Positions 17,330-64,000 of a DNA stretch of 64,000 nt are shown one piece after another. Made by a program: the position numbers and the translations under genes. The notes below the pieces were generated by a model, which saw nothing but the letters and a program-made list of their open reading frames with translations, was not told the DNA's origin and did no database searches. Every line of letters begins with the position of its first letter. Position 1 is the first letter of the stretch. Source of the DNA: Eledone cirrhosa (lineage: Eukaryota); the NCBI GenBank assembly GCA_964016885.1, contig OZ024742.1, positions 58,094,001 to 58,158,000 on the forward strand, written 5' to 3'.

Positions 17330-18560
17330 AATAGGTTAAATCGAACATTTAATGAAAAAAAGAGCTGAATCGATCAACATTCTTGGTTATGTTATTAGTC
17401 ATAATAACCTAAATTCGTTAGCAAAAGTGGAACAACTCCGTTCTGTTTAATTATTTATCTTACATCTTTACATCGAAGAAATTCTGTACCGAGCAAGACA
17501 TGACGGCATACTGGTTGAATAGAAGCAATAATGACAACTTCATGAAAGCTATAGCACATCAATATGATAGCGTTATGAAAATAGTGTTAGAGTGCGAAAA
17601 GTTGAAAACACTAGCAAGACCATTCGGTGTGAAGTTCGAAACAATGAACTGTGAGTACTTTAATCAATGCGGGTTGTATCTAAATGTAGATACGTCACTG
17701 AAAGTTATTAGAACCATACTAATGACTCAGTGTATTATAGAATCTAATTTTGTTAATCAGGTATGGGAATTACTGACTCTGAAAGCACAAAAAAGGAACT
17801 TGTTAGTATTACGAGGCCTGCCTAACACAGGCAAGAGTATGATAGCAAGCAAGGTCTATAGCAGATCTATTGACACACGTGTCAACTGTTCAGGGGACAT
17901 CTAGCTTCCCCTTCCAAAACTTGATTAATGTGGAGATAGGTTTAGTCAAAGAACCGTCGTTCACGTAAACTCTTCAAACTTTTAAGAAACTTGCCGAAGG
18001 AGTGGATACAGAGGTGATGGTGAAATTTAAATTAGATCAGACAGTCAAGCGAACTCTGCTTATCATAACATCTAATACAAGGTTTGATTCACAGGCACCG
18101 GCAGCTGAAAGACATGCATTCATAACAAGATATTTTGAGTTGCTTTTCAATACACAATCACCATTCTTGAAACATGTCAGAAAACGATTAAATCCTGGAA
18201 TATGGAATGTATTATTTTACGAACATTGCTTTTCTTTAATTTCAAATGAACAAAGCAACTCATCGGATGAACATCTTGCCTTCATTCTAGATGAGTACGA
18301 AAGAAAATGTGGCGAACAACGTGACAAAGGCTGTACTGAAGCCAACAGACAAGGTGGATTGAGGACTCCGACTAGAGCTGGAAGCAGAGACACATTTCCC
18401 TGCACACCATAACAAGGAACGTTGCTCTCCACAACAGAATAAGGAGAATGTGCCTCCGAAGACGATTTCACCTCAGAACCAAGATGGGAAAAATATAAAT
18501 GGTTACTGAAGTCAAACAGAGATGCACCAAGTTCAGTTTTAGTATCAGATTCCGACTTTT
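17330..18560 (+). pseudogene. Endogenous parvovirus/densovirus-like NS1 (superfamily 3 helicase) pseudogene
   Basis: KRNLLVLRGLPNTGKS (Walker A); after a frameshift FPFQNLINVEIGLVKEP (Walker B), FKKLAEGVDTEVMVKFK (B') and LLIITSN (motif C), in the Parvoviridae NS1 order and spacing; disrupted by a stop and a frameshift. Confidence 0.85.
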
Positions 18561-18571
18561 AAGCTTTTTAT

Positions 18572-18690
18572 ATTGCATGTCATAATTATATAATTTTCAA
18601 TGCATGGTTTTCATTATACTATATTTTCTTCTTGCATGTCATAATTATATAATTTTCAATGCATGGTTTTCATTATTTTATATTTTCTTC
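18572..18690. repeat. Two-copy ~59-bp tandem repeat followed by AATAAA and an A-rich tract
   Basis: TTGCATGTCATAATTATATAATTTTCAATGCATGGTTTTCATTAT..TATATTTTCTTC twice. Confidence 0.85.
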
Positions 18691-18899
18691 ATGGCAATAA
18701 AAAATCAAACAAAAAAAAATAAATTAAAAAGAATGAGAAAATAGAAGAAAAATGGAAACCAGCCGGGAGGTTGGTTTCCATAAAAAAACGGCGATCAATG
18801 CACTGTTCAAAGTAGTCGCTAGGTTGAATGCTTAGAATGGCCGAAATAGATTGAGAAGCTTTGCTTTAAAGAATGCGTCAACAGCATTAAGTGCTTTAT

Positions 18900-19230
18900 T
18901 CAACAGTGCCATTCTAGTAACATACGTATGATGGGAGACTTTAATCTACCCTGTATTGATTGGTCTACTAACAGTTTGAAACCAGGCATCCCACCTCAAC
19001 CGCTGACAAAGAAGCAGTTGATTCACTTCTCGACTGTTTGAATGAGTTTTTCTTGTCCCAACTCGTCCTTGCACCAACAAGATATCAAAAGAACATTTTG
19101 GACCTAGTGCTTAGTAACCACACTAACACTATACATAATATTACAGTGGAAAAAAACCCTTCTTTCTGACCATGATATGGTTCTTTGTAACCTGAGATTC
19201 CACCAGCTGAAAGCTAATCCTAGTGATATG
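18900..19230 (+). mobile_element. CR1-group LINE APE endonuclease fragment
   Basis: MGDFNLPCIDW..QLVLAPTR..NILDLVLSN..SDHDMV. Confidence 0.8.
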
Positions 19231-19231
19231 A

Positions 19232-19400
19232 AATTAGCTGGTTGAAATTATCAAATGCAAAAGCCTACACGAACGGGATGTCCCAATGCGGATTATGCAA
19301 TACGGAATTACTCCATATTCTGCAATATAATAAAACACTACTTAACAGCAAAATCGAGCAGACAATTTTCTGTAGGCACAAAGCCACTAGTTAATTTTGA
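19232..19400 (+). mobile_element. PLE GIY-YIG C-terminal fragment
   Basis: AKAYTNGMSQCGLCNTELLHILQYNKTLLNSKIEQTIFCRHK. Confidence 0.75.
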
Positions 19401-19589
19401 AATTTTTTATGACCATGCTGTAAAATGGAGGGGTAGAGAGGGCCCTTGAGTCTAGTAAGACATCCTCTCTAGTGGTGGTGGCACAAATAAAAGCACCCAG
19501 TCCATGCTGTAAAGTGGCGCTGGTGTTAGGAAGGGCATCCAACCAGTGTATTAATGCCAAAACGATTATCAGCACAGCAACAAATAGAT

Positions 19590-21692
19590 AGGAACAACAA
19601 AATATGAAGACGTCGCATCTCAGAGTTTCAACACTTAATATTGGCACTCTCAGAGGTAGATCTGCTGAAATAGCAGAGATGCTGGAGAGAAGGCATGTGG
19701 ATGTGTGCTGCGTGCAAGAGGTGAGATGCCTCTGCGAGACTAGTTGTAGGCAAACATCTTAGCTATAAGCTTTTCTGGGTAGGTAAGGATGATGGGTTAG
19801 GGGGAGTAGGCATTTTCCTGGCTGAGAGATGGATCAATAAGACAATAGAGGTAGTTTGAGTTAGTAATCGAATAATTAAGCTTAGATTAGTTGTAGGCAG
19901 GAGACTACTGACAATCATCTCTGCCTATGCTCCCCAAGCAAGCCTAGGCAAAGAAAGACTGCTTTTATGAGCAACTTTTACAAACAACCGCAATGACAGA
20001 GGATGGAGACATCGTTATGCTAGCAGGGGACTTCAATGGTCATGTTGGACAGCTCCAGGATGTTTACACTGGGGTACATGGTGGGCACGGTTACGGCTCA
20101 AGAAATGAAGAAGGAGTGAGACTTCTTGAATTTTGTGATGCAAGTACACAGTATTTGCAACACTAACTTCCAGAAACCTGCCAACCACCTAATAACATAC
20201 AAATCTGGCGAGCACATAAGCCAGATTGACTTCTTACTAGTTAGGCAGCGGGACAGACAGATGGTGTCAAATACTAAGGCATACCCCAGGGAAGAATGTT
20301 CCCCACAGCATAGGTTAGTCGTTAGTGATATCTCAGTAAGCAAGCGATGGAATGAGACATACAGGAAGGTGTGGAGAAGAAAGGTCTGGAAGCTAAAAGA
20401 CCTTTCACTAAAATACAAATTTAGGAAAGCCCTTCAAGATGTGTATAACAAAAAAGAAGACGATTTAGAGACGTATGACAGATAATGACTGGAATTTCTT
20501 ACGTGACAACTTACTGCAGGCTACTGATGAAACTTGTGGCTGGAGCAGAGCTCCAACCAGACAGAGAGTGACCTGGTGGTGGAACAGCACAGTAGATAAG
20601 GCCATTAGAGACAAAAGACTAGCATGGAAGGCTTGGAAAAAGGGTGGGAGTAGGGAAGGATATACAGCCGCTAAGAGAGAAGCAAGACGTCAGGTGTACT
20701 TAGCACGCAGGGAGGCTGAGAGTAGGAGGTTTGCCAATGTTCTGCGATGAGAAGATCAGAGGCGTGCGGTGGTCCACATTGCAAAGCAGTGTGTCAATGC
20801 AAATCAGGATGTTGTTGGAGATAAATGTGTCCGGAATGATGCCGGTGTACTTAGTGTCATGAATGATCAGAAAAAGGAGGCCTGGAAATGTCATTATGAG
20901 AGACTGATGAATGTGGAGAACGAATGGGAAAGAGAGAAATTACCCTCAGTAGATCTGACAGAGGGACCAGTATTGAGATTGACGAATATAGGGTCCAAGA
21001 GTCAATTAAGGAAATGAAAAATGGTAGGGCTGCTGGACCATCGAGGATAGTTGCTGAGATGCTGAAGGCATCAGGGGACGTAGGAACTAAACTGGTTGCA
21101 CTCATCATCAATCAGGCTATATATGGTGGTGTCATACCCAAAGACTGGTGCAGCAATATTCTCATAAATTGCTACAAAGGTAAAGGGGTTGCTCTGGAGG
21201 GGGGCAATTATAGGGGTATAAAACTGATGGATCAGGTTATGAAAGTGGCAGAAAGGATATTAGCACAACTAATTAGAGAAAGGGTCAAACTAGATGAGAT
21301 GCAGTTTGGTTTTGTACCTGGGAAGAGTACAACAGATGCCCTCTTCTTGGTGAGACAATTACAAGAGAGGTTCTTAGAGAAAAATAAGCCACTATACTTA
21401 GCCTTTGTTGACCTAGAGAGGGCCTTTGATATGGTACCCCGATCTGTCATCTGTTGGTCCCTAAGGAAACTAGGTGTTGAGGAATGGCTTGTGAGGACAG
21501 TGCAAACTTTGTACAGAGGTGTTGTCAGTAAAGTGAGGGTAGGAATGGAGTTTAGTGAGGAATTCCAGATACAAGTAGGAGTACATCAAGGTTTGGCCCT
21601 CAGCCCGCTCTTGTTCATTATAATCCTCCAAGCCATAACAGAGGAATTTAAGACTGGCTGCCCATGGGAACTTCTCTATGTTGACGATCTGG
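19590..21692 (+). mobile_element. RTE-clade LINE (APE endonuclease plus partial RT), decayed and 3'-truncated
   Basis: Homologous to 38490-41529: GDFNGHVG, WWWN, YKGKG, NYRGIKL, QFGF, FVDLERAFD, GVHQG, ELLYVDD; many stops and frameshifts. Confidence 0.93.
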
Positions 21693-22940
21693 TTCCACTG
21701 CCAATTAAAGGCCGCTCTTCGCGCCTATCAAGACTCTCAACGTTTGAGCGAGTACCTTCCTATTGTGTTGTTAGGAATTTGGTCATCAATAAAGGAGGAC
21801 CTTGGGTTCTCCCCGGCCGAATTACTGTATGGTGCTGCTCTAGCGTTGCCTGGGCAAATGCTTGCCCTTGTTGATCTTGCTTTCCAGGACCCTGTTTCCT
21901 ACGTATCTCGTTTGCGCTCCTATTTTCAGGACTTACCGCCCATGAATACTAGGAAACAAACTATTAAAGCTGCAGTCCCGAGGGATATTGCCTCGTGGAC
22001 ACATGTATTCGTCAGAAATGATGCGGTTACTCCACCCCTCACACAACCATACTCTGGACCCTACCGTGTGTTAGCACATACTGACAAACATTTCACTGTA
22101 GACAATTTCGGTGGATAGACTAAAAAGGGCATACAATGACGCTCATACACCCGAGCCACAAATACCTCAATCTTTCTCTCTTGTGCATACACCTGCTCCT
22201 TCTGCCCCATCTTCACCTACATACAAGACCACGACCCGTTCCGATCAAAGAATCCACTGGCCCAAAAATCTCTGCCAAACTGTTTTCATGTGAACTGGCC
22301 ACTGGAGCCTTATTTTTTGTGTGTTTTTCTCTTTATTGTATTACCATGTACCTTTTCGTTACCATCTCATGCCTGTACCTTTTCGTTACCATTTCATGCC
22401 TGTGCTGGGAGCCCATGCTTGTGGGTTCGCTACAATTACCTTTAGGCTTTTCGCCTAGCGTCTGGAGGAGGGTACTGTAGCGTCCCCTTACGGCTGTGAC
22501 TCAGCACCTATAGGAGTTGCGTCCCTTTATGACGGTCGTAACTCAGCATGTATAGGAGTTGCGTCCCTTTACGATGGTCGTAACTCAGCATGTATAAGAG
22601 TTACGACCCTTTGCGACGGTCGCGATTCCCATTGGCAGATTCATGTACTAAATGGAGTTGCGTCCCCCTGGGGACTATATATTTGAGGACAATCAAGGCA
22701 TAACCCTCTCTTGCATCCTGAACTTCGAAGGAAGAAGAAGAACCTTACCAAGAGAAGATTTCTGTTCTTCTCTACACACTCCAGTCTGGGAGTTGTGACC
22801 AACTGAACATCAACATGTGGTAACAATTATTTATATCAATTTATTTGACTTCTGTGAAGTAAAACCATGTCACAACACTCACCTGCATTTATTGTCATTC
22901 TTGATAATATATATATACACTGATACTAATATCCTAAAAT
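21693..22940 (+). mobile_element. Gypsy LTR retrotransposon 3' end: integrase C-terminus, PPT and LTR (LTR about 22476-22940)
   Basis: FHCQLKAAL..LPIVLLGI..SPAELLYG..GPYRVL; PPT GGAGGAGGGTAC followed by TG at 22476; ~43-bp tandem subrepeats in the LTR. Confidence 0.88.
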
Positions 22941-23298
22941 GTCATTGGAGAGAAGTGTATTGGGAATGATAAAGGTGAGCTTGCCCTCACAAGTGCTGAG
23001 AAGATGCATGGAAGAGCCATTATGATAGATTACTAAATGAGAAGAATGCATGGGAAGAAGAGACCCTATAGAGGGGCCAGCAGTACAAGTCAGCAGCAGC
23101 GTAGTAAGGCAATCAAAGATATGAAGATGGGGAAGGCAACCAGTCCATCGGGTATAGCTGCCGAGATGCTGAAAGCATCTGGGTCTGTAGGTCACACTAT
23201 AACCACACGTAGTGTTAACCAGGTAATACTAGGTGTCATACCAAAAGATTGGTGCAGTAGCATCATTGTCAACTGCTACAAAGGTAAAGGTGATGCAT
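22941..23298 (+). mobile_element. RTE LINE internal fragment
   Basis: KAIKDMKMGKATSPSGIAAEMLKASG..IPKDWCSSIIVNCYKGKGDA. Confidence 0.9.
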
Positions 23299-24163
23299 AA
23301 AAAGGGCATACAATGACGCTCATACACCCAAGCCACAAATACCCCAATCTTTCTCTCTTGTGCATACACCTGCTCCTTCTGCCCCACCTTCACCTACATA
23401 CAAGACCACGACCCGTTCCGGTCGAAGAGTCCACTGGCCCAAAAAACTCTGCCAAACTGTTTTCATGTGAACTGGCCACTGGAGCCCTTTTTGTTTTTTT
23501 CTTTATTGTATTACTATGTATACATGTACCTTTTTGTTACTATTTCATGCCTGATTTATACATGTACCTTTTTATTACTATTTCATGCCCGATTTATACA
23601 TGTACCTTTTCGTTACTATTTCATGCCTGATTTATGCATGTACCTTTGCGTTAATATTTCATGCCTGTGCTGGGAGCCCATGCTTGTGGGTTCGCTACAG
23701 TTACCTTCGGGCTTTTCGCCTGTCGTCTGGAGGAGGGTACTGTAGCGGCCCCTTACGGCTGTAACTCAGCACTATAGGAGTTGCGTTCCTTTGTGACGGT
23801 CGCGACTCCCAGTGGCAGATACGTATAGGAGTTGCGTCCCTTCGTGACGGTCGCGACTCCCGGTGGCAGATCGATGTACTAAATGGAGTTGCGTCCCCTT
23901 GGGGACGATATATTTAAGAACATCAAGACATTATCTCTTTCACTTCCTGCACTGGCAACCGAAAGGACCACTTGAACCTTACCAAGAGAAGATTTCTGCT
24001 CTTTACACGGTCCGGTCGGGGAGTTGAGACCCTCACGACATGTGGTAAAAATTATTTCTATTAATTTATTTGACTTCTGTGAAGTAAAACCATGTCACAA
24101 CACTCACCTGCATTTATTGTCATTCTTAATAATATATATACACTGATACCAACATTCTAAAAT
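23299..24163 (+). mobile_element. Second copy of the same Gypsy 3' end and LTR (LTR about 23741-24163)
   Basis: Homologous to 22121-22940; same PPT-TG junction; expanded ~36-bp tandem repeats at 23520-23670. Confidence 0.88.
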
Positions 24164-25600
24164 ACCTTCTTACGTGTATCGACCGTTTACACGTTGGCCT
24201 GAAGCCATTCCTCTTGAAGAGATTTCAGCAGAATCAGTAGCCCGAGCTCTGATGTCTGGCTGGATTTCGCGATACGGTGTCCCTTCCACGATCACCACTG
24301 ACCATGGCGGACAATTTGAATCACATCTCTTTCATGAACTTTCTAAAATCTTAGGGATACATCGGATTAGAACTATTAGTTACCATCCGGCGTGAAATGG
24401 CATGATGGAACGCTTTCATCAACAATTAAAAGCAGCAAAAATGGAGTGAATATCTACCAATTGTTCTTCTTGGCTGTCGCGTGGCAGTCAGGGAGGATCT
24501 CGGTTATTCCCCAACGGAATTGCTGTACAGAACACCTTTATCCTTGCCGGGACAGATGTTAGTCCCAGTCGATGCATTGCTGGAAGATCCTACGTTATAT
24601 ATTAACCGTTTGCAATCATATTTCAACGATCTTCCGCCTATGGGAACACGTCAACAGACGATTAAATCTTTGGTTCCTAAAAATATTACTTCTTGGACTC
24701 ACATTTTTCTACGTAGACTCAGTAAAAGGACCACTTGTGCCACTCTATACATGACCCTACCGTGTCCTGGCAAACACAGTTTCTGTAGATAGGATTAAAC
24801 AGGCCTTTACAGACGCTCCACCAGTTGAACACCATACACCCCCCCCCCCACATACAATACATTGCATGTTGAACCTTCACAAGCATACTCACCCACAACA
24901 TCACACCCACCTTCATTACCGTCACCCACATGTGTTACGACGACTCGTAGTGGTCGTAGAGTACATTGGCCTCAGAGATTGAGTAAAACAATCTATATGT
25001 GAACTGTGATATTGTTCAAAATTTTGACTCTTATGTAAACAATTTCTTTTGCTTGTTCAATTATGTTATGTTTCATTTTTCTTGGTTGTATTCATGCATG
25101 TATTTTTTCTCGGTGTACCCGATGATTTTTTATTGTTTGATGTCATGTAGACATATTGCATATTTAGCACTACTCATGTATTGATATAGATCTTCAATCT
25201 AAACGGAGGGTACTGTAGTGAACAGAATTATTATGCATTTACCTTTGGCGGAAGAATGGTGTCACAGAAGTGAATTGGCTGAAGTAGCCAATCAGAGCCC
25301 TCAGCGGATCGAGACAAGTTGCTGGACTACTTGGACCAGAGACACAGTTGGCTGACAGGCTGAGAGAGACAGAGTTCACTGAACGACCAGTATCAAGATG
25401 TCCGACATTTGATATGCCACATTCTTTCACATCTCCACTGGAATATGCAGCCAACACGATGTGAAGACTTGCTCAACCTTCTCTTATTATTTTCGATTCC
25501 ACATTTGTACAACAAATAAAAGGGAATTTTTGTTATAACGGATTATGTCGTTTTTGTCATTACCTTCTGAATCGATAAATATAATATCATCTCCAGCGAC
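24164..25600 (+). mobile_element. Different Gypsy element: integrase core, PPT and LTR (LTR from 25214)
   Basis: [40 protein letters not shown]; GGAGGGTAC then TGTAG at 25214; AATAAA near 25516. Confidence 0.85.
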
Positions 25601-26492
25601 ACTTAATCAACGTTATAACCTGGCCAAACAACTCATTTACGAGATTTCTGCCTTTTACAGAAGCCAGTTAGTAACCGCACCTCAGAAGAACTGCCAACAC
25701 TAGGGCCCCAACAGCAACAAAAACTGCAACAACCAATGACAACAGCACCAACGCAAAAATCTGCAGCAGCAAAACCAACAACTGCAAGGACCACCAAGAC
25801 AACCCAGGGACCCCCAAAGAAGCCCCCCACCTTGAACACACACACATATTGAAACCCACAAACGCCAACTCACATCTGACACAAACACAGCAACCTCTTC
25901 AAGAAGTCGGACATAGGGAAGATAAGTAAAAGAATCCTGGATCGTATCATACCCAAAGTCAAGCACCAAGTGAGGCTCAGCTGATGGAATAGTACTCAGG
26001 AAGTCATCTGCTTCAATAGTATTGCTGACAAGGAGAATACATTTATTCAGTTCAACATCAAGAATTACTATGCCTCATTACTAAACCACTCCTAAAGGCC
26101 ACTATATAATATGCCAAAACATTTACACCCATGAGTGACAAAGAAATACAAATTATTTTCCACGCTAAGAAGACTATTGCTTTTTGATAATTCTACCCAC
26201 CCTTGCAAGCAGAGAAAAGCGGACGTAAAATGATGATGATGATGATGATAAAAAGAGCCCCAGACTCACCGCTGATGTTAGTATGGGATCCTCAGACTCG
26301 GCCGAGGTCACAGACTTAATAGGCTTGTCACCCTCACCGGATACAACCCCAGTAGCACAGATCATGTCTGTAAACACCTTATCAAGTTCTTCCATGAATT
26401 AGGTTTCAGAATTACCTTATAAACGTACCTTATCTGTGCCAACTTCTTGGATGTAACACTAAATTTGGAGAATAAACTGTACTACCCCTACA
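25600..26492 (+). mobile_element. PLE RT fragments, with a SINE/RTE 3'-tail insertion at about 26190-26250
   Basis: KSDIGKISKRILDRI..FIQFNIKNYY..DVSMGSSDSAEVTDLIGL..NFLDVTLNL; homologous to 35594-36505. Confidence 0.85.
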
Positions 26493-29278
26493 CAGTGGTG
26501 GATTAACAATATAAGCAAAGTAAGCACGTGCTTAGGGCATCAACAAATTTTTATATGATAAATTTACAGTTTAAATTATTAAATTAATTAATTTTATATC
26601 AATTTTCAAAATGAAATAAGAAATGAATAAATTCGGTATAAACATAGTTGTTCATTTCAGTTTATTTGTTAAATCTCAGTTTTTCAGACGTTTACCTTTA
26701 GAAATTTTTCTGAAACCCAATGTATTCTGGTTCAATTTTAAAATGGCTACATGCTTGTTGAAATGTTTTTTAAGGTTTATGAATATAGCCACCAGCTGAA
26801 AGTTTTTTGATACTCCCAATCCCAACAAACCAAGGTTTATTTTCTGCTTCTTTTTATTAACAATTCTGTTCATTAGGGTTTTTTAGTTTTTTTACAAATT
26901 TTTTTTTTAACTTGAACCTTTTAATAGTGTAGACTCTATATCAAAAATAATTGTCATTTGTATTCTAGATTATCTGCTATATAATATAACTTTTTTATTT
27001 CTACATAATTTTTTTTATTTTTTATTTTTTATTTTTTATTTTTTATTTTTTATTTTTAATTTTTAATTTTTAATTTTTAATTTTTAATTTTTTATCTGAA
27101 CAAACTTAAGCTTTAATTTTATAACTGTATTTGCTGATTGTTTATTTGGGTTCACACCATCCTTTTTCAAATCTAACCATCAGATCTAATTAACAGAAGT
27201 GGGGCACAAAAACGAAAACTTTCAAACAAGAAACAAGAAAAAGCTTCGGAATTAGATCGCAAGACAGCAAAGCTGACTAATTTTTTCTCACAAGTTCCAC
27301 AACATGATTTACAGATTCCAGGTCAAAACCGATATACGTTATCAGAAGTAGACATGAATACGGCAAATACAACTTTGATTACTTCAGAATCAAAATATGA
27401 TGACATTAGAAGTACCGAGATGTCGCAAGCATGTTCATCCAGCACATGTCTCACAACTGATCTTACTTTGCCTGTGAATTCTCTTTATTCGGAAACCTCT
27501 ACTACAAATGATAGGGGTCAAATAATTGCTGAAAATAGAAGTTTAGAGCACTGTGACAATGGCGGTGAAATTAATTTGCCTGTAAAAAATGAAGAAAATT
27601 ACAATTTAGCGAACGATCCAGGAATGTGGCTTGATTTCTCTGCTAATGATATAGCTTATTGGATTACTTGTGAACCCAGTATTTGTCAACACCACAACGG
27701 GCCATTTGAAAAGTCTTGCCTTCATTTTAGTAGTGGCAAACCAGTAAGGTATTGCTCACAGAAACTTTTTATTGGGACAAAAGCCAATGGTGAAAAATAC
27801 AAGAGAGAGTGGTTACTCTATTCACCATCAAGAGGATCAGTTTATTGTTTTGTTTGTAAACTGTTTGCTCGTGAAAAAAATTCAATTTTTGTTTCAAGAG
27901 AAGGGTTCAGTGATTGGCGCAATACTATTGTAATTGAAAAGCATGAGAAAAGCATTATTCACTGAGACTCTTTGCTGGCATATTTAACTCGCAGGCAAGG
28001 TGCGGGGTTAAAGTCAGATTTGGAGAAACAAATTCATGAAGAGTGCAATTACTGGGAACACGTTTTGAGGCGTGTCGTAGCTGTTATTTGTACGTTAGCT
28101 GAACATGGCTTGCCTTTTCGAGGAAGTGAAGAGAAGTTTGCAATGTTGCAAAATGGGAATTTTTTAGGGCTGCTTGAACTCAAGCCAGTTTGATCCATTT
28201 TTAGCAGGCCACATTTCTAAATATGGAAATTCTGGAAAAGGAAATCCTTCTTACATATCAAAAATCACTATCGAGGAAATTATTCAACTAATGGCACAAA
28301 AGGTCCGCGAGTTCATTATTAACGAAGTTAAATCTTCTGGTTATTTTAGTTTGTCCGTTGATTCGACACCAAATTGATCACATAGCGATCAATTGAGTGT
28401 TGTACTTAGGTATTTACAAGATGGACAGCCTATTGAACGATTTTTAACCTTCATCATAATAGAAAACCACACTGGCGAGAATATGGCGAACCAGGTGCTG
28501 CTGCATTTATGTGAAGCTTGTGGGTTAAATGTTTCAAAATGTAGGAGTCAAACTTATGACAATGCTGCTAACATGTCTGGGCGTTATAAGGAGATGCAGC
28601 AAAACATTTTAGAAACAAACAAGTTTGCTATATATGTGCCCTGTGCAGCTCATTCATTAAATCTTGTTGGCCGGAGTGCTGTTGACTGCTGTCAAGAGGC
28701 TGTTAATTTTTTCTCTACAGTTGGAAAATTCTCAAAGATTGTATTAAGAATGAATGTGTTTTGAAATCCCTCTCTGATACAAGATGGGAAGCACATGCTA
28801 TGGCAATAGCAGCAATCTTGAAATCGTTCCCTGAGATTTCCGAGGCATTAGAATATATAGCCGAAGATCAATCAGAAAAGGGAGACGCTAGAAGAGAGGC
28901 AAATAATATTGTTGATAAGATGCAAGAGCTAGAATTCGTTTTTATGTTGATTTTTTGGAATGAGATTTTGCAGAATTTTCACAGAGTAAGCAAAGTTCTA
29001 CAAAATGAGGATGTGAACTTAAAAACATGTGCAGATCTCTATGTTTCATTAGCTGACCAACTGAACACCTCACGAGATGATATGACCAACTGAACACCTC
29101 ACGAGATGATATGAAAAAGAGGCCAAGGAAATTCTTCCAGATGTTGATTACAGGACAACTGCAACTCGCAAACGTATTAGAAAAAAAAGTACCCAATAAT
29201 ACTGCAGAAGTTTATTTAGATGATACTGCAGAAGTTTATTTAGATGCCAGAGATAAGTTTCGTATCACCACATTTCTA
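26493..29278 (+). mobile_element. hAT DNA transposon (DUF4371/ZMYM1-like transposase), left end, decayed and 3'-truncated
   Basis: Begins CAGTGGTGGATTAAC; WLLYSPSRGSVYCFVCKLF zinc finger, GNFLGLLEL, FSLSVDSTP, QTYDNAANMSG, CAAHSLNLV, SDTRW. Confidence 0.9.
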
Positions 29279-32200: not shown

Positions 32201-33586
32201 GACGTCGATGCACTAGAACTGTTCATCAACGAAAACGAGCAGAAATTGTTACAGGACCAATGGCGGGCGTATGACACAGTTTGCACTTCCATTCGTCAAT
32301 GCACAGGAGGTATCTTCTTTTTGGACGCCCCAGGAGGAACTGGTAAAACATTTGTCACTAAAATCCTCCTCGCCAAAGTGCGACAGCAAAAAGGAATCGC
32401 CCTGGCTGTGGCTTCTTCTGGGATTGCCGCAACTCTGCTGCCCAGAGGTAGGACAGCTCATTCCACATTTAAACTGCCATTCAACGCGACTTCAGACGAC
32501 ACAATAACCTGCAATATCACCAAGGACTCTGACAAAGCAGAAGTCTTGAAAAGATGCCAGCTAATTGTGTGGGATGAATGCACAATGGCCCATAAAGGGT
32601 CTTTTGAGGTGTTAGACAGGACCCTACGAGACATCAGGGAATGCAACCGGCCGATGGGAGGAGTACCTCTACTGCTGTCTGGCGATTTTCGACAAACTCT
32701 TCCAGTTGTTCCAAAAGCCACCAGGGCCGACACTGTGGGAGCTTGCATTAAGTCATCTCCCTTGTGGCAGGAGGTGATAATTCTGACCCTCACAACAAAC
32801 ATGAGAGCCCAACTGTTCGGCGACCACTTATCAGCCGACTTCTCGAAGGACCTCTTAACAGTTGGTGACAGCACTGCACCTTCAGATGCAGCTGGAGAAG
32901 TGGCAGTCTCGCAAGTAGGCACCGTTGTCGAAACTGTTGACGACCTCGCAGCCTCTGTCTTTCCCAATATGGCCATCAACTACAAAAACACGAGTTAGCT
33001 GTGCGATAGAGCCATATTAGCTCCCAAAAATGTCTCTGTTGCAAAAATCAATGAGGACCTTCTGCAACGCATTCCTGGTAACCTCCATACCTACAAATTT
33101 GTGGACACAGTTGTGGACACAGTTGTGGACAAAGATGACGTTGACGATTTTTCCACAGAATTCCGCAATTCCTTGGACCTCTCCGGACTGCGCCTGAAAG
33201 TTGGGGCTCCAGTGATGCTGTTGAGGAACCTGGAACCACTGTGTCTCTGCAATGGAACACGGTTAGTGGTAAGAAACCTCCTGCCGCATGTAATTGAAGC
33301 CACAATTCTCACGGGATGCGGTGCTGGAGAAAACGTATTTATACCCAGAATACCATTAACTCCATCAGGTAAGGAATGCCCCTGTACTCTGCGCCGACTT
33401 CAATTCCCCATTAAACTTTGCTTCACGATGTCAATCAACAAGTCCCAAGGCCTCCATTTAGGCCAGCCGTGCTTCTCACACAGCCAATTATACGTCACAT
33501 GCTCAAGAGTCGGATGCAAGCAGAACTTATTCATACTTGCGCCCAAAGGCAGAACAAAAAGTGTGGTCTACAGAGAGGTGTTGTGA
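29280..33586 (+). mobile_element. Helitron RepHel pseudogene (HUH Rep plus PIF1-family helicase)
   Basis: Rep motifs PDLFITLTCNPKW, VEWQKRGLSHTH, KYINK; helicase motifs DAPGGTGKT, IVWDE, GDFRQ, QFPIKLCFTMSINKSQG, QLYVTCSRV; several stops and frameshifts. Confidence 0.95.
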
Positions 33587-33589
33587 CTC

Positions 33590-38169: not shown

Positions 38170-38266
38170 TCCCCACGCACCACCATTGTTATTACGTGGA
38201 CCAATCATAAGCCAGAGCCCCCACGCACCACCATTATTATTACGTGGACCAATCATAAGCCAGAGG
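38170..38266. promoter_or_regulatory. Duplicated ~48-bp unit containing a CCAAT box, upstream of the RTE ORF
   Basis: CCCCACGCACCACCATT.TTATTACGTGGACCAATCATAAGCCAGAG twice; GACCAATCA fits the NF-Y consensus; function inferred only. Confidence 0.35.
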
Positions 38267-38489
38267 CCTATACTACCGCTTGCCTGGTTGCCTTTCGATA
38301 TATGATGGATGGATGGACTACGGAATCCTGGAGAGTGGAAGAGAGAGAAAAATCTGGACGCTCAGCGACAATGCCAAAGATAAAGACAAATTCACCTCGT
38401 GGACGAGAATGCGAGCACTCCTCTTTGTTTCGGCTGCGGATGGCTAACATAACCCCATCTCCCCCCGCTCCCACCCTCCAAACGCAATC

Positions 38490-42800: not shown

Positions 42801-42887
42801 AAATATTGTAAATAAAACGAGTAAATCAGACAAAGTTGGAATTCCTTTTATTAATATAATCTTCTATACACAATCATACACACCCGT

Positions 42888-42917
42888 GTATATCTATCTA
42901 TCTATCTATCTATCTAT
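42888..42917. repeat. (TATC)n microsatellite, target site at the head of the Tx1 array
   Basis: GTATATCTATCTATCTATCTATCTATCTAT. Confidence 0.95.
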
Positions 42918-42924
42918 ATAATCT

Positions 42925-48740: not shown

Positions 48741-48741
48741 A

Positions 48742-48775
<34 letters not shown>

Positions 48776-54403: not shown

Positions 54404-54411
54404 ATATCTAT

Positions 54412-54657
54412 CTGTAGGTTGAGGAAAAGGAGGAGGAGAGGAAAGGAGTACAAACTCTTCGTACTCCTGGAGATGAGGGTTGCACATTTTTTTTTCGGGG
54501 GTATGTGTTACCCATGTAAACTGTCTCCCTCTATTGGGGAAAATCGACTAACTTTTTAAATTCCATTTGTGATAACATTTTACACGTTTTTATTGTATGT
54601 AAACTTCCCCCTTTGTATTTGTCCCCTTCTTTTGTGCCCCTGTGACTAATAAAGAAA
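54412..54657 (+). mobile_element. Tx1 3'-UTR-only copy E2b (E4-type subfamily)
   Basis: Starts at the ORF2 stop context CTGTAG and ends AATAAAGAAA; near-identical to 60228-60473. Confidence 0.88.
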
Positions 54658-54670
54658 TATATCTATCTAT

Positions 54671-55654
54671 CTCACCGAGCTGCAAAACTGGGCGCCTGGC
54701 ACACTGAGTGTGCCCAGGCGCTCACCGCCCTCTGGCAGGCGGATCCGGTTATCAGTGGAGAATCCACAGCAACATTCTAGAGGGCTGGTACGCAGCAGGT
54801 GCGACGACGCACTCGGAGAAGCCCAAACATGGAGGAGGACGAACTGGCCAGCATGTTCGGTAGGACATTCAGCTAGAGACCTATGGACAACTTCCAGAAG
54901 TCCCTGGCCTGGCAGTGCTACCGAGGGGCTCTACCTGTTCGAGAAAAGCTCTACAGACATGGGCGCCCGGGTAGGGACCCCGCCAAAAAGATCTGTCCCA
55001 GATGCGTGTGCGACGAGGAAACCGTTGCACACGCATTGGTACACTGCTCGAGCGTTGCCGATCTGTGGGGCTATGTCGAACAACTGCTGTCAAGGGTGGG
55101 ACCGATCCGGTTGACCACCGAGTCTATTGTAATGAACAAGCCGCCTCACCCCTTCAAAGATGAAGGAGAGGCGGTGTTTCTGTGCGTAATAGCCATGGTG
55201 AAAGAAGTTGTATGGTGGACGCGTCTGAAAGGACTGAGGTCAGGCACCTTTCTCTCTGGCCAACAACTGGTCCGTTTCTTCCGATATCATTTCGGAAGAA
55301 GGATCAGGATGGAGAGAGAGGTGCTCCACCCCAGTCATTTTTATGAAAGATGGGTGAAAGTGGCGAGAAAGGCCCGTGTGAATGGGCCTTCTCTTTACAT
55401 AAGCCTGTAGGTGGAAAAGAGGAAGGAACGAGGGAGCACCCCCTCTCTGTGCTCCTGAGGAGAAGGGCTGCACACTTTTTTCGGGGGTGTGTGCGACCCC
55501 CCAAGGCGCCTCCTCTCTATTGACGATTTTGTTATAATTTTATTTTATTTTTATATATTGTTATTGCCTCCTCCCTATTGAGGACGCCTTGTTTTGTAAA
55601 CTCCCCTCATTGTACTTGTCCCACTTTTGATGCCCTGGTGGCAAATAAAAGAAA
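54671..55654 (+). mobile_element. 5'-truncated Tx1 copy E2c (E2 subfamily)
   Basis: ORF2 C-terminus (54883-55410) plus 3' UTR; TATC motifs at both ends. Confidence 0.93.
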
Positions 55655-55666
55655 CATATCTATCTC

Positions 55667-58600
55667 TGGGATGGACACACGCGTGTAACTTGCTGAGTAA
55701 GTTCTGCTTAAATTTCTATAGAAATTCTTGACTGTAAACTTTCATTTTTGTACCATTTTGTAGAGGGACTGCCAGGTCAAATTTTGATCTGGTCAGTCTC
55801 TGAAAATATTCTACTCCTTTAGGTGAAATAGTTAACAAAAAGTTGTTTTTTTTGAAAAGCTAACATTTTTTTTTTAAATGGCTGAAGCTTCTTCACCAAA
55901 ATTCGAAGGAGGAAAGGGGAAGATATGCTTACAGCTTCCCCCTGCCACTGTCATAGTAGATGTCAAAGACAAAGGTCAGCCAGAGGAAGGATTTTCTCCA
56001 CCTGCTGACCGACAACTTGACGTTGCCATGGCAACAAACGAAACAACCAGCTGCACCAGCAACAACAACACCAACAACACCAATAACAACAACAACAATG
56101 ATAACAACACCACCACCAACTACAACAGCAACACACATAAGGAAAACCCTAGACTATCTGCCAGTAGATACAACCAAAGCGAAGGAGCTACTGGCAGATG
56201 CCAAAAAATACATAATGTACGGGGAAAATGCATCAATATCCATGGGAAAGGCATCGGGTGACTCGTTCAGTGGAACGAGCCTCGAACTTGTAGTGCAAAT
56301 GCGGCCCGAAAGGATCGCCCAGATCCCTGAACAAGTCTTACTGGATGATCAAACTTTTATCAACATTACCGTTGAGGGTAGGCAGCCCTCGTGTTACCTC
56401 TGTGGAACCAGAGGTCATCTGAGGGCTGTCTGTCCTCAACTTAACAAGAAAACCCCAATCCTGCCTACACCACCAACAACTGCACAACCAACACAATCAC
56501 CACAACCACCACTACAAAAACAACAACCACAGCTCAAACCAAAACAACACAATGTCCAACCCATCCCCCCCACTAAAAAAAAAACAATTTCCAAAACACC
56601 CGCACCACAAACACAACCCGAAAATCTACCCCTCCTCTGCAACGCGGAAGATGACCCTCGTTCGTCGTCAGAGGAGGAGGAGCACTTCCACACAATCAAA
56701 AGAAAAAAAAGAAAACACACCTCAAACACATAAATGAAAACAACCCCTCCCCCAAAACATAACACTGACACCAACACAAAAGAGCACACAACAACAGCAA
56801 ACAAAAACATGCATGCACATACATAAACATAAGAAATACAAAACTGTTAAACATTGTGTAAAACAACAATTTGATAAAACCCCAAGGACCTAAATTCACC
56901 CAGGCAGAGGATTTCCCCCACCTCAAAATGATTAAGGCCCCAGAGGACACATATAAAACACTAAAAAACAACGAAAAGAGGGAGTAGATCCACAATCCGG
57001 TCTTTGCGAGACCAGGATGGACGAGTGATCCTTGAGCCTAAGCAGATGTGCGAGGCTTTTCAAAAGCACTTTGCCAGATTGTTCGGAAGGGGCGGGGAGC
57101 CAGTTGGGGAAGTGGACTTCGGTCCATACCTCGACGGCCTGCCGCGTCTCTCGGACAGGGAGGAGCCGATTTCAGTCCTGCGAGGAGCCGATTTCAGCCG
57201 CTGAGATAGAGGACGTGCTGAGCCAATGCGGCAAATGCAAATCCCCGGGTCTCGATGGTCTTCCATACAAACTATATCTAGCTATGCCGGACTTGTTCCC
57301 CGATCTCCTCTAGGCGGTCTACTGTAACTGGCAACAGAACGGAAGAATTCCCTGTGCTGTGACCAAGGGCGTAGTCATGCTAGTGAGGAAGGACGAGAAC
57401 AAGGGGGACAATATAAATAATTTCAGGCCCATAACTCTGCTAAATACAGAGTTACAGATTTTAGCCAAGGTGCTAGCAAAGAGGTTGGCGCTTGTCGTGG
57501 GCAACCTGGTGGCAGAGGTGCAGACATGTGCTATCCCGTCCAGGTCCATCCACGACAACCTCCACCTCATGCGATACATCATAGAGAGGGTTGGGAACGA
57601 ACCCGGCTTTGGTGGGGCCCTGATCAACTTGGATCAATCTAAGGCGTTCGATAGGGTCGACCATGGTTACCTGGATGCGGTGCTAGCGGCGGCAGGCTTC
57701 GGACCCGTTTTCAGGGGCTGGATCAATGCCATGCACAGCAGCCGCATCTGCTCTAGGGTCAAGGTGAACGGTCTGTAACTCGGCACGTGGAGGGGCATAT
57801 CGATGCCCTCCGATGGCGTCGTCGGGCGCTGGACGGAGGGCCCAGTGAAGTTGCTCGGGGTCTGGTTCGAACCAGACCTCCAGGTGGAGAAGAACTGGGG
57901 TGAGGTAACGAACAGGGTGTTTGCACTGACCCAGAAATGGGCCAAGTGCAAACTGTCCCTGAAAGGTCGAGCGGAGGTGGTGAACACTTATATAGCATCC
58001 GTCATCTACTACCGCCTGACCGTTGTGCCTTGCCCAAGGGAACCGCTCGCCAAAATGGAGCGCGCACTCTTCCAATTCCTTTGGAAGCGGGCTCCTATGG
58101 TGAGGAGATCCATCTGCTGTCAACACCCTTCGAAAGGAGGGCTGGGGATGCTGTGGCTAATGATACGTAAACACGCATTAAGGCTACGGCACCTCCAGGT
58201 ATTCCTCACCGGTCAACCGGTGTGGGCCCCGTTTGTGAGGCGAGCCTTTCCCAGACTCGTCTCACTCACCGAGCTGCAATCCTGGGTCAAGCTAAGACCG
58301 AGAAAACTGGCAGGCGGACCCGGCTGTCAGTGGAGAATCCACCTCGTCATTCTATAGAGGGTTGGTGGTTAGCAGGTGCGACGACGCCCTCGGAGAAAAG
58401 CCCTAGGCATGGAGGAAGACGAAATGGCCAACCTGTCCGGTAGGACATTCAGCCCGGAACCCATGGATAACTTCCAGAGGTCCCTGGCCTGGCAGTGCTA
58501 CCGAGGGGCTCTGCCCGTTTGAGAAAGGCTCTACAGACACGGGCGCCTGGGTAGGGACCCCTCGAAAAAGATCTGACCCAGATGCGTGTGCGACGAGGAA

Positions 58601-59215
58601 ACCGTTGCACACGCATTGGTACACTGCTCGGGCATTGCCGATCTGTGGGGCTATGTCGAACAACTGCTGTCAAGGGTGGGACCGATCTGGTTGACCACCG
58701 AGTCTATTGTAACGATCAAGCCGCCTCCCCTCTTCAAAAACGAAGGAGAGGTGGTGTTTCTGTGCGTAATAGCCATGGCGAAAGAGGTTGTATGGTGGAT
58801 GCGTCTGAAAGGACTGAGGTCAGACACCTTTCTCTCTGGCCAACAACTGGTCCGTTTCTTCCGATATCATTTCGGAAGAAGGATCAGGATGGAGAGATAG
58901 GTGCTGCACCCCAGCCGTTTTTATGAAAGATGGGTGAAAGTGGCGAGAATGGCCCGTGTGAATGGGCCTTCACTCCACATCAGACTATAGGTGAGGAAGA
59001 TGAAAAATCAAGGGAGCACCCCCTCTCTGTGCTCCTGGGGAGAAGGGTTGCACACTCCCTATTGAGGATTTTGTTATAAAATTTATTTTGTTATATTTTA
59101 TTTTATTTTTATACTTTGTTATTGCCTCCTCCTTATTGAGGACGCCTTTTCATGTAAACTCCCCCCATTGTACTTGTCCCACTTTTTGATGCCCTGGTGG
59201 CAAATAAAAAGAAAA
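55667..59215 (+). mobile_element. Tx1 copy E3 with internal deletions (ORF1 end and endonuclease lost)
   Basis: 5' UTR like E2; ORF1 MAEASSP.. with CCHC; jump into ORF2 near 56975; RT fragments; stop at 58988-58990; AATAAA at 59203. Confidence 0.93.
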
Positions 59216-59251
59216 TTATCTATCTATCTATCTATCTCTCTCTCTCTCTCT

Positions 59252-60473
59252 ACCAGACATGTGTAACTTCGCGGAGAAGTTTCCGTTAATTTATGTAAGA
59301 AAAAAACGTGAGTTTTCAGTTAAATTTTATATTATTGTGTAACTTGACCCCCTGTCTGGACCTTCAGGTGGTGGGTCAACCCATTTTCGCCCCTACAAGG
59401 GCGAAATATTCGTTTGATAAATTTTTCCTCCATAGAATTTTTGAAAAAATATCCTAAGAAGTTTGATTCCGTTATGAACGCTGCATCCAACGATAATGGT
59501 GGTGGAGAGTCGGTAAGACTACATAGCTCGCAGTCAACATCGTCTTCTTCCCTTTCCTTCTCCATAGATACTGAGATGGAAAGACGAAATAAAATTGTAA
59601 AAACAAATTCATATCCAAACAGCACAAATGACACCAAACAGTACGACAACAAAAATAACAACAACACCAATAATGATGATAAAAACAACAATGACAACAA
59701 CAACAAAGAAAAAAATAAAAACAACACCAATAATACCAGCATCAAAGACAATAACAACACCAACACCAACACCAAGGAAAATACGAATAATATCAACATC
59801 AGTGACAACAAGAATAACAACAAGAATAACAACAATAATGACAACACCACCAACACGGATAATTCCACAAAGAATCCGAAAATCTCCTTTGCACAGACAG
59901 TTCAGAAAAAGGAGGAACTGACATATCTCGACATAACAAATGCCGAACAACTTTTAAAGGACGCTAGGAGATGTGTCACTTTCGAAAAGAATGGTGCTTT
60001 CAGCATCAATTCTCCGGTAGAAATTCGCAAGGAAACTGCTTTCAAAACGATAGTTTTTAGGACAGTTTCCAATTCTACCCGAAAACCAGTCCAATTGTCA
60101 CAGAAAGAAATTGAACTGGTTTTCAAAAATTCAATGAATGATATTTCATTCATTCAAAGAAGCAAACTCTTTGGGAGTATTTCGGTACTCATGAAGGATC
60201 AATTGACGGCCCAAAATGATGGTGTCAGCCTGTAGGTTGAGGAAAAGGAGGAGTAGAGGAAAGGAGTACAAACTCTTTGTACTCCTGGAGATGAGGGTTG
60301 CACATTTTTTCGGGGGTATGTGTTACCCATATGAACTGTCTCCTCCTATTGGGGAAAATCGACTAATTTTTTTAAATTGCATTTGTGATAATATTTTACA
60401 CGTTTTTATTGTATGTAAACTTCCCCCTTTGTATTTGTCCCCTTCTTTTGTGCCCCTGTGGCTAATAAAGAAA
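59252..60473 (+). mobile_element. Tx1 copy E4: 5' UTR and ORF1 N-terminal half joined directly to the 3' UTR
   Basis: 5' UTR hairpins like E1; ORF1 ..KISFAQT..VFRTVSN..GSISVLMKD; junction at AGCC (about 60227) into CTGTAG and the 3' UTR. Confidence 0.9.
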
Positions 60474-60494
60474 CATATCTATCTATCTCTCTTT

Positions 60495-63400
60495 CTGTCT
60501 GATGCGTGGAACATCGCCGGTAAGCTTTTTTGTTAATTTCTATACAAAAATCCGAACTAATTGTTTGAAAAAACATAACATTTTGTAGATTAACCCTCAA
60601 GCTGAACTGTCAGCTGGGGCGAAAATTCTATTTTAAAAATTTGTTTTAAAATATCAGATTTTACAAACTAAATAACTTGAGCAACACAAGAACGCTGGAG
60701 AACGTTAATAGAGAAAAGAGAGAGAAAGAGGCAGATATTAACGTTATATCTGCTTCTGCTACTATGGACCTCGCCATAGATACAAGTGTCAACAAAGAGA
60801 AAAATATATTAACACTTGAAAATTTTAAAATTTCTACCGTCGAAGCAGAGAAAAATAACAATAACACACATGAAAACACAGGAATTAAACCCATTAACAT
60901 ACATACACATGAAAAAGACATCAACAACTCTACAGATACATATACACATAATGTTTCACCTCGACAAGGAACTGAGATTTCCAACAACGATAACAACAAT
61001 AACAACAGCAACACCACACAAAAAAAGAAAATGTCTTTTGCTGAAACAGTGAACAAAAAACAAGATTTTATAAATCTTGATATCTCCAACGCAAGAGATA
61101 TGCTCCAGCAAGGGAAAAAATTTGTAACTTTCGAAGAAAAAGGTGAGTTTAGAATTAACTCACCCCTTGAAATAAAGGAAGCCACAATCCGCAGATCAGT
61201 CACCTTTAGGACTGTGTCAAATTCCACAAGAAAGCCAACATTTGTTAACCAAGCAGATATAGAGGATTCTTTCAAGGAAATTCTAGCAAATGTCGATTTT
61301 CTCCAGCGAGGAAAACAGTACGAAAGTGTTTCCGTACTGTTTAAAAGCGAGGCACTCCCCCCAAAAAAACTCTGTGACACCAATAGTGTCAAAAGCATAC
61401 ACCTTTTTCCCTACATACATGGGAAAAAGGACACAAAAACTAAAAATAAAAAACATACCTCTAAACATTAACATCTGGTGGATCTTGGCTAGGTTCGTAG
61501 AGCCAGAAACTGATATGATACTTTCGATATGAAAATCTATTCGACAAAGGTGGGTGGGCACAGATTTGGAGATTCTGTTGCAAATGAAACCGGAGAGAAT
61601 CTCCAAAATACCCGAAAGAGTCGTTATCGATAATAACAACAAAATAAACATTTCGGTAGAAGGACGAAAATTTCATTGCTTTCGCTGTGGTAGCACAGCA
61701 CACCTAAAAGCCTCTTGTCCACAAATACACAACATCATAAAAAAAACGCTATTACCAACACCAACACCAAAACAACTACCACCACCACAAGTACAACGAC
61801 AGACGAAACGAGCAACCACACCAAAACAAACAGACACTCAACCAACAACAACAGAAAAAACAGAGACAACACCCCTGAAGAACACAGCCCCACTCCATCA
61901 AACACTACCACAAACACCACCACCACACAACATACCCTTACCCCACACACCTGACGATGATTATTCATCGACGGATGAAGCTGCTTCTCCTTCTTTAAGT
62001 GAAGAAGAGAGAGAACCGCGGAAATCTAAAAAACAAAAAGAGACACCACAAAACCCACAAAACTCCAATCACCAACACACAACCACAGACACAAACAACA
62101 ACACAAACAACACCACAGTCAAACATCCCCCTATCAGCAAAACAAGCACCAACACCACCACAATCACAAGCACCCACCATAAAAAGAAAACTCCCGGACG
62201 AACACCAAACTAAAACAACACAACAAAAACACAAACAACAATACGCATACATCAACACAAACAACAAGAGTTTGATGGAGGTCATCTCCCAAAACCCCAA
62301 GGTGGAGACGGAGGGCAAAACTTTCGTCAAGGCAGAATCGTCTCCACACCTTAAACTTATAAGGGTTTCTATGGAAACCTATAATGACCTAAAAAATAAA
62401 TTTTCACAGGACGTGGGCAACCCCTGCCATAAACCCATCAACCACGCCCTGTTAAAATGTTTCCCCACCCCACCCAACACCCAAATGGAGATTGAACAAC
62501 CCAATCTCCAGGAAATGAAAAGGTAAGTGCACCTTTCGTCCTTTTTCTCCAACTTTTCTTCACCAACATGGCTAGTTTACGAGTTGGAACCGTGAATGTG
62601 CGTGGCCGAGGGATGCCCTGGAAACAGGGCCAACTTTTAAACAACCTTAGGTCACACAGTATGGATGTGATAGCCATCATCTAGTCCAGGATCCACAACA
62701 GGCAGCAACTAACCCCCATCTTCGACGACTTTGAGATCTACGCATCTCTCTGTCAGCCAGGAGGTGGAGTGGCTGTCATGTTTCGGAAGAACCTGGACGT
62801 CGGAGTACAGCAAGTACACTTGGACCCGGAGGGTAGACTGGTAGTCCTAGACGTGAACAGTATCGGAGGTGGAGCCTTCAGACTGGTGGCCGTTTATGCC
62901 CCGACCGGGCTATCGCAATCACGCCCAGACTTCTTTAAGCGTCTAGAGTCTTTTCTGGGAACGTCTCGCTCCTTACTTTTAGTGGGGGACTGGAATGGTA
63001 TCCTAGATGCACGATGGGACTATGTGGGAGCATGTTCCAGTAGAGCTGGGTGCAACAGCCTCAAAACTTTAATCGGCCAATTCCAACTGGCCGATAGGTA
63101 TCGACTGGATTTCCCGACTGCACCACAGTGGACGTGGGCAAACCGCAGTGGGACATCTAGATCGTATTTAGATAGGTTCTTCATTAGAGAAAGGGATAAG
63201 ATGTTAAGCTGTCCATGAATGCACATAGTTGCCTATTCAGATCACAAGTTAGTCGTCTGCTTAGTCAACCGTGATAGAATAGAATACATAGACAGGGTCC
63301 CGGATACTGGAAGCTGAACGTGTCGTTGCCGGCACGTAAAGCTTACAGTGAATGGATAAGTAGACTAGTCAAGCAACAGTTAACGGGAGCCATCGTCAAC

Positions 63401-64000
63401 AATAAATGGTGGTACTCTCTCAAGAAAGCAATTAGAATAGAATCGATAGGGTATAGCAGAGAGTTAGTCTTAGAGAAAAACAGAATAGAAAGAGAACTAG
63501 TAACCAAGGTAGAGGAGGCACTTAGAAGTGGCAACGCGGCTAGAGTGTTAGCGTTGAGAACGGAACTGGACCAGTTCTTCGATGCGAAACACGAAGGCTG
63601 CGTGGTCAGAAGCAAAATACGTGCTCTAGGAAACGAAGGAAAGCTGTCAGCTGGGCCCGAGTGGCGGAGGCAAAAAGTGGCAACAAGTCCATAATTCGTT
63701 CTTTGAAAGACCAAAACGGACATGTGCTACTTGACCCCAAGCAAATGTGCGCGGCCTTTCAGCGGCACTTTGCGCGACTGTTTGAGCAGAACGACGGTGA
63801 GCCGAACGGGGCAATGGACTTTAATTCATACCTCAACGGCCTGCCGGGTCTCTCGAACACGGACGCCGAGTTCTGCGAAAGACTGATCACGGACACTGAG
63901 ATACGGGACGCTCTGAGCCGCTGCGGGAAACGCAAGTCACCCGGTCTAGATGGTCTACCCTACGAATTGTACATAGGCATGCTGGACTTGTTCTCTGGCG
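60495..64000 (+). mobile_element. Tx1 copy E5 (ORF1 to 62526, ORF2 from 62568), runs off the window
   Basis: ORF1 has CFRCGSTAHLKASC; ORF2 APE (VNVRG, GDWNG, YLDRF, SDH, GYWKLN) through SPGLDGLPYE; decayed. Confidence 0.93.

Follow-up and report, generated by a model that had tools for sequence, protein, structure and literature searches.

Among the described clusters of PIWI-interacting RNAs (piRNAs), the core read-through clusters of mosquitoes start right after an ordinary gene, run in a single direction over more than 220 kb at most, and carry antisense non-retroviral viral inserts, according to the available passages of Qu et al. (10.1101/2022.08.22.504762). The mammalian piC-DoGs, clusters of piRNAs that lie downstream of genes, consist, in the passages available of PMC11615739, of dense antisense transposon fragments directly downstream of a host gene with an intact coding sequence, and the same source describes uni-strand clusters in the slug Arion vulgaris, with one-strand piRNAs antisense to dense transposon fragments. 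Excerpts on flamenco and flam-like loci (PMC10643416) and on Aedes cluster 38, which has fused transposon-virus pieces (PMC7161354), describe one-strand fragments over more than 100 kb, recognisable by strand bias alone. Here we compare with these systems a block of transposon and parvovirus-like fragments in the octopod Eledone cirrhosa. The block begins in a stretch of 64,000 nucleotides, hereafter the window (assembly GCA_964016885.1, contig OZ024742.1, positions 58,094,001 to 58,158,000, forward strand; G000:C3:58,094,001-58,158,000 in the labelling of this analysis). The genome scanned comprises 3.0 Gb, flanks of 200 kb were added on each side of the window, and positions outside it are given as window-equivalent coordinates.

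An initial annotation, made from the letters of the window alone, had described about 15 plus-strand units packed at 17.3–64 kb and had proposed a flamenco-like uni-strand piRNA cluster. The one-strand packing is real. Pfam was run on all stop-to-stop frames of at least 75 aa (105 on the plus strand and 103 on the minus strand), and all plus-strand matches to transposon or viral proteins fall at 17.4–63.2 kb (NS1, RVT_1, rve, DUF4371, Helitron_like_N, PIF1, Exo_endo_phos, zf-RVT); the single matching frame on the minus strand, a reverse transcriptase (RT) at 9.8–11.0 kb, lies outside the block. A tblastn orientation map built with about 100 natural frames as queries gave 12 plus and 0 minus units at 17,330–64,000, or 10 once an array of Tx1-type long interspersed nuclear elements (LINEs) is collapsed, and 19:0 at 17.3–92 kb (15/15 with the array collapsed). 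Queries taken from outside the cluster only gave 6:0 in the window and 13:0 up to 92 kb. The annotated total of about 15 is reached when weak or DNA-level units (the endonuclease, the Penelope C-terminus, the RTE tail, Gypsy at 22.0–22.7 kb, and the second RTE) are added to the tblastn units. The one exception among the Pfam and tblastn matches is the 68-bp inverted Penelope piece that the annotation had already noticed. Its other suspected minus-strand piece, at 42,810–42,880, has no assignable strand because it lies in a short dispersed repeat whose internal palindrome matches in both orientations.

The block extends well beyond the window, to a total of about 170 kb (G000:C3 about 58,111,330–58,279,500), with the strict part ending at 92 kb. 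The bias over the whole of 17.3–186.5 kb is weaker than in the strict part, with 42 of 52 units on the plus strand: 92–186.5 kb contains 23 plus and 10 minus units, and its right-hand section, 116.5–186.5 kb, has 20 of 24 on the plus strand. Transposon protein or repeat covers 89% of 17–92 kb, and protein-level transposon cover is 74% there compared with 16–18% in the left flank. Thirteen element classes are present, including Helitron, hAT, piggyBac, Merlin-like, Penelope, and Tx1, with Gypsy in the minority. The A/T skew of the plus strand is 0.06–0.15 outside a mixed zone at 92–116.5 kb. Such dense one-strand transposon fragments over tens of kb are the mark of a uni-strand cluster, and since the bias spans both DNA transposons and DNA-virus fragments, we infer that it is not an artefact of reverse transcription.

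Comparisons with other parts of the genome confirm the contrast drawn in the initial annotation with the first 17 kb, which it saw as mixed in orientation and rich in short interspersed nuclear elements (SINEs). The 217 kb left of the block contain 13 plus and 15 minus units. No tRNA-SINE match occurs at 17.3–64 kb, where about 8 are expected, one occurs at 17.3–92 kb, and three at 17.3–186 kb, compared with 68 matches in the 400 kb made up by eight randomly drawn 50-kb windows. The strand counts of these eight windows in the tblastn map are 0:3, 4:15, 4:5, 4:3, 2:4, 7:5, 4:8, and 1:2, and none of them matches the block in purity, density or diversity. In these windows 59% of neighbouring units already share an orientation (170:120 pair counts), the most skewed window has 15:4, and binomial p-values are too optimistic because of this overdispersion. 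The probability of about 6 × 10−5 that the annotation gave on condition of independence rightly counts the Tx1 array, which orients itself, as a single unit, and is too optimistic on the same grounds.

A distance of 1.6 kb separates the end of the block from the stop codon of DNA polymerase eta (POLH), a gene on the minus strand. Its final coding exon, which carries the UBZ domain and the stop, occupies 188.4–187.17 kb on the minus strand and ends at 187,166, which is 123 kb past the window, and the nearest plus-strand unit of the tblastn map ends at 185.5 kb. The best match of the gene is POLH of Octopus vulgaris; five more exons are 84–92% alike, and the IMS exons lie at 203.7–205.9 kb. Because the minus-strand end of POLH adjoins plus-strand units, the block lies downstream of this gene and in antisense orientation relative to it, the layout of a downstream-of-gene cluster, in which a gene points into a block of antisense elements just behind it. 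The stop codon is followed by ATTAAA at +122 and by no AATAAA within 4.1 kb, a weak hint of a weak polyadenylation (poly(A)) site. To the left, the next host exon found is the first exon of the minus-strand gene DCAF12 at about −124.5 kb. The annotation had considered that the region might lie in an intron; Pfam found no host exon in the 312 kb between POLH and DCAF12 (a scan for exons of at least 50 codons), and 216 short frames in the non-repeat gaps gave no convincing host match (best E=1e-4, one isolated frame). An IBR Pfam match at −84 kb, tried as a host exon, is part of a Penelope nuclease instead.

The leftmost unit of the block is an endogenous parvoviral element, with homology to the superfamily 3 (SF3) helicase of NS1 and integrated in host DNA. 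It has 17 other matches in the genome, five homologues all carry PF01057, and related parvoviral loci have VP frames with a phospholipase A2 (PLA2) domain on the same strand. A second parvovirus-like NS1 insert, 74% alike to the first, is on the plus strand of the same block at 88.2–90.0 kb. The border between flank and NS1 is bridged (16,132–18,602) at single-copy depth by contigs of three DNA-like runs, possibly from the source sample. These runs have the same depth on unique sequence of the flank and of the block, and behave as DNA. Elsewhere, the unplaced contig C841 has a tandem array of parvovirus-like NS1 pieces of about 1.6 kb over 30 kb (C841:41,000-71,300). The parvoviral PLA2 domain has 28 matches genome-wide; seven of them, on C5, C10, C14, and C998, have identical scores and in part form inverted pairs, which suggests recent duplication. 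Two further PLA2 matches on C25, at 7,455,998 (+) and 7,919,145 (−), are 460 kb apart with identical score and opposite orientation, and may mark a duplicated, inverted copy of the C25 block.

The one-strand layout recurs at other loci with NS1. Ten loci were chosen by NS1 similarity alone, and neighbours of other families within 20 kb were counted; a 10-kb locus on C998 was excluded as too short, C27, C841, and C25 (7.9 Mb) each contributed their two NS1 matches as a single locus, and the set leaves out the NS1 match on C13 and the second one on C1. The neighbours lie on the same strand in 61 cases and on the opposite strand in 13. Orientation maps, from which the block edges were drawn by hand, revealed among these loci five further one-strand blocks of many families: 133 kb on C12 (48/51 units on one strand), at least 88 kb on C25 at 0.58–0.67 Mb (39/41), 27 kb on C25 at 7.91–7.94 Mb (13/13), 53 kb on C2 (20/20), and 47 kb on C27 (9/9). 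The C12, C2, and first C25 blocks are SINE-poor and the C27 block is not. Inside the C12 block, C12:9,023,500-9,050,000 is a 26-kb one-strand run of Penelope sequence, probably a tandem array. A divergent partner block to the right of the C2 block was also considered and is unsupported, as orientation there is mixed.

Before these five blocks were inspected, a prediction was made for each as to the side on which a driver gene should lie and the strand that it should use. At three of them the predicted side holds the end of a host gene that points into the block antisense to the transposons (p between 0.002 and 0.06 under assumed gene densities, which give a chance of 6–20% per locus). A JADE-like gene (EPL1, PHD, HC5HC2H) has an 892-codon last exon 12 kb before its block, an FKBP-TPR gene ends 14 kb before its block (C25:554,000-568,000), and the proline-rich last exon of NAF1 lies 5 kb inside a block edge; the first exon of NAF1 has no homologue match. 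FKBP6/Shutdown is a piRNA co-chaperone, and if the FKBP-TPR gene were FKBP6/Shutdown, a gene of the pathway would drive a piRNA cluster; this identity is not assignable, as FKBP4/5 score as well or better.

These results lead us to propose that the block forms a uni-strand piRNA cluster and owes its transcription to read-through from POLH, a reading to which we assign a probability of roughly 60%, while its being a piRNA cluster of any kind seems to us quite likely. Transcription of POLH would run through a putative weak poly(A) site, and the resulting RNA would be antisense to the transposon and parvovirus fragments along about 170 kb. This long U-rich antisense RNA could then enter primary piRNA biogenesis and be cut into piRNAs against the trapped families. 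Antisense insertions would be kept because they silence their families, and we propose such selection as the cause of the bias. The genome contains four multi-exon loci with a Piwi domain (C2, C15, C23, C24), and a densovirus-derived insert in a psyllid reportedly yields piRNAs. Silencing by antisense inserts has been shown in flies (PMC13226689), and Piwil1 and Piwil2 are reported as conserved in molluscs (PMC6128900), as far as the passages available of these papers go. The minus-strand precursor antisense to transposons, proposed in the initial annotation, thus gains support from POLH ending at the far edge and from the same layout at three other loci, and remains a prediction as to the RNA itself.

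The closest known kinds appear to be the mosquito read-through clusters and the mammalian piC-DoGs, which the block resembles more than it does flamenco. It shares with the former the onset after an ordinary gene, the single direction, and antisense inserts of non-retroviral viruses; the mosquito clusters, in the passages available, hold pieces of RNA viruses, whereas the octopod block holds parvovirus-like pieces of DNA viruses and is known from DNA alone. With the piC-DoGs it shares dense antisense fragments directly behind a gene, and it differs from those described in the excerpts in being longer, in its 13 classes, and in that read-through is here predicted. The Arion clusters have in common with it the mollusc host and the one-strand antisense layout; in contrast to the octopod block, neither an upstream gene nor viral inserts are reported for the slug in the available parts of PMC11615739, which cover no cephalopod. 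Of the comparison with flamenco, the long one-strand block stands. The Gypsy-driven strand bias given as its mark in the excerpts of PMC10643416 is absent, as the bias extends over all 13 classes, and flamenco has a dedicated promoter, is expressed in the ovarian soma, and shows a Gypsy-only bias, whereas here a gene end abuts the block. The block thus differs from flamenco in content and probably in promoter; read-through clusters themselves were already known. Molluscan piRNA clusters are described as enriched for young Gypsy elements and DNA transposons (PMC6128900, in part), and small RNAs of O. bimaculoides exist, with no cluster layout in the passages available (PMC12479628). Our search of the open-access literature returned no published account of cephalopod cluster architecture or of octopus parvoviral inserts.

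More tentatively, octopods may keep read-through piRNA clusters genome-wide behind housekeeping genes (POLH, NAF1, JADE-like, FKBP-TPR), as an antisense archive of parvoviruses and of almost all transposon classes. If true, the downstream-of-gene mechanism would extend from mosquitoes and mammals to lophotrochozoans and cephalopods would have a heritable small-RNA memory of DNA viruses. The origin of piRNA clusters is an open question, and with four octopod loci whose putative driver genes have names, read-through becomes directly testable in a third bilaterian branch. The layout also offers a rule for recognising cephalopod clusters from DNA only: a one-strand, SINE-poor block of many families, antisense and downstream of a gene.

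Several observations weigh against read-through from POLH. The strictest one-strand part is also the farthest from POLH (95–170 kb away), and in the zone at 92–116.5 kb orientation is mixed, with 6 of 9 units on the minus strand, and the A/T skew is reversed, −0.073 compared to +0.147 and +0.069. An age comparison found the minus units not younger than the plus units, and the minus strand shows no depletion of AATAAA at 17–43 kb (16.4 per 10 kb). At the other loci, no driver gene was found for the C2 or C27 block, a canonical AATAAA follows the stop of the JADE-like gene at 51 nt, one block has the end of a STEAP-like gene 49 kb past its other side, and any intergenic pile of transposons is expected to have a gene at some edge. 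Two of the ten NS1 loci are without co-orientation (2:4 each). The same holds (7:8) for four loci, of 20 kb each, that were selected afterwards from the 28 matches for their similarity to parvoviral VP, and many parvoviral inserts are therefore solitary. The Tx1 array, finally, co-orients on its own.

The mixed zone may reflect an inner promoter or an old inversion. In the former case the block could be a uni-strand cluster with its own promoter near 92–116 kb, the strict 17–92 kb forming one unit and POLH driving at most 116–186 kb. This would fit the abrupt onset of strict bias at 92 kb, the orientation and skew of the mixed zone, the gaps of unique sequence at 91.6–92.9 and 111.5–114.1 kb, the CpG-rich unique sequence at 111–113 kb (observed/expected ratio above 1.1), and the two blocks with no gene. 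We regard it as rather unlikely, given that genes end at the predicted edge in four of six blocks and that minus-strand Penelope pieces beside plus-strand copies, or an inversion, could account for the mixed zone. Some minus Penelope pieces do adjoin plus copies, and elements of the Penelope class show inverted insertions. A clean inversion of 92–116 kb is unsupported, the zone having six minus and three plus units and no split element.

The bias could also arise with no piRNAs at all, if a long minus-strand transcript (a 3' extension, a long noncoding RNA or the intron of an unseen gene) purged sense insertions that terminate or mis-splice it. Purging would explain a bias beside a gene end with no role in defence, random windows are partly co-oriented as well, and short exons could have passed the Pfam scan. 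It leaves unexplained, however, the enrichment of many low-copy families and parvoviral pieces seen in the protein-level cover and the loss of SINEs on both strands, and the scan found no host exon between POLH and DCAF12; we consider it unlikely.

A transposon graveyard oriented mechanically by nested insertion, target-site preference, and local duplication is improbable for the block as a whole, although the Tx1 array does orient itself. Each Tx1 unit ends in AATAAA and (TATC)n, the next unit starts at once, and the array takes up 21 of the 47 kb of the block in the window, its units ending in and abutting (TATC)n or (TC)n. Eleven dispersed Tx1 copies were fetched, and 3 of the 10 that were readable are followed by more Tx1 in the same direction. 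The array thus grew by head-to-tail insertion of its own, linked to microsatellites. Kibi and Koshi belong to the Tx1 group. They are known to target microsatellites, and the ending in and abutting of a microsatellite is what the array units share with them in the passages available of PMC3812793; the parallel covers the array at 43–87 kb only, and target specificity is seen here from 10 flanks. Internal duplications are also present within the block. Mechanical orientation nevertheless fails to account for hAT, Helitron, Gypsy, Penelope, RTE, and parvovirus pieces, which use unrelated insertion chemistries and whose dispersed copies lie on both strands, nor for a direction antisense to the adjacent gene in 4/4 blocks that have one. 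Misassembly, which the annotation had raised and which the repeat-rich sequence and the failure of short contigs to span it might suggest, is very improbable given the absence of N, the single-copy bridge at the NS1 border, the 4–36% differences among Tx1 copies, and the fact that misjoins would neither pick one strand nor recur at five loci.

Table 1. Features of the window, with position, strand and supporting evidence.
Feature	Position	Strand	Evidence
Predicted antisense precursor path, distal part of block	17330..64000	-	inferred from element orientation and POLH position
Parvovirus-like NS1 C-terminal fragment (SF3 helicase), stops and frameshifts	17408..18520	+	Parvo_NS1 E=8e-4, PPV_E1_C E=7e-5
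LINE endonuclease fragment, weak (CR1-like in initial annotation)	18850..19040	+	Exo_endo_phos_2 E=0.0012
Penelope C-terminal fragment, weak	19227..19397	+	tblastn E=1.5e-4
RTE tail piece (19,489-19,543) and truncated RTE LINE	19489..21694	+	Pfam, sequence matches
Gypsy 3' end and sequence like a long terminal repeat (LTR)	21700..22940	+	83% same-orientation match to sequence after + Gypsy pol at 180.3 kb
RTE fragment	22938..23297	+	tblastn
Gypsy LTR-like repeat and integrase fragment	23300..25000	+	rve E=5e-7
Penelope RT fragment	25904..26491	+	tblastn
hAT transposon, 3' truncated	26493..29275	+	DUF4371; extent from dispersed copy
Helitron Rep-helicase	29338..33633	+	Helitron_like_N, PIF1; extent from dispersed copy
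Gypsy-like pol fragment (RT, RNase H, integrase)	33747..35385	+	RVT_1, RVT_3, rve, DUF7047
Inverted 68-bp Penelope piece, 5' end of next element	35386..35453	-	97% match
Penelope RT fragment	35453..36502	+	tblastn to Penelope frames whose relatives carry GIY-YIG
Near full-length RTE LINE, (TGA)n tail	38217..41910	+	Exo_endo_phos, RVT_1, PHD; 96% to copy outside block
Tx1-type LINE head-to-tail array, several subfamilies	42915..64000, on to about 87 kb	+	copies 64-96% alike
CR1/L2-like RT outside block (control; flank mixed in orientation, with SINEs)	9199..10993	-	RVT_1 E=6e-32

The content of the block matches elements dispersed elsewhere in the genome in all three families tested, with copies on both strands in each. 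The hAT piece has 27 further full-query matches at 93–97%, the Helitron has 39 scored copies at 88–92% among 515 candidates, and Tx1 has dispersed relatives at 98%. Past the distal end of the block, directly left of the window, about 60 kb are taken up by a 50/59-bp satellite array (G000:C3 about 58,024,000–58,084,000), with a 3-kb outlier inside the window at 5,900–8,900. The window also contains, at 1,598–2,686, an inverted repeat of 542 bp that is 99% complementary with a 5-nt loop.

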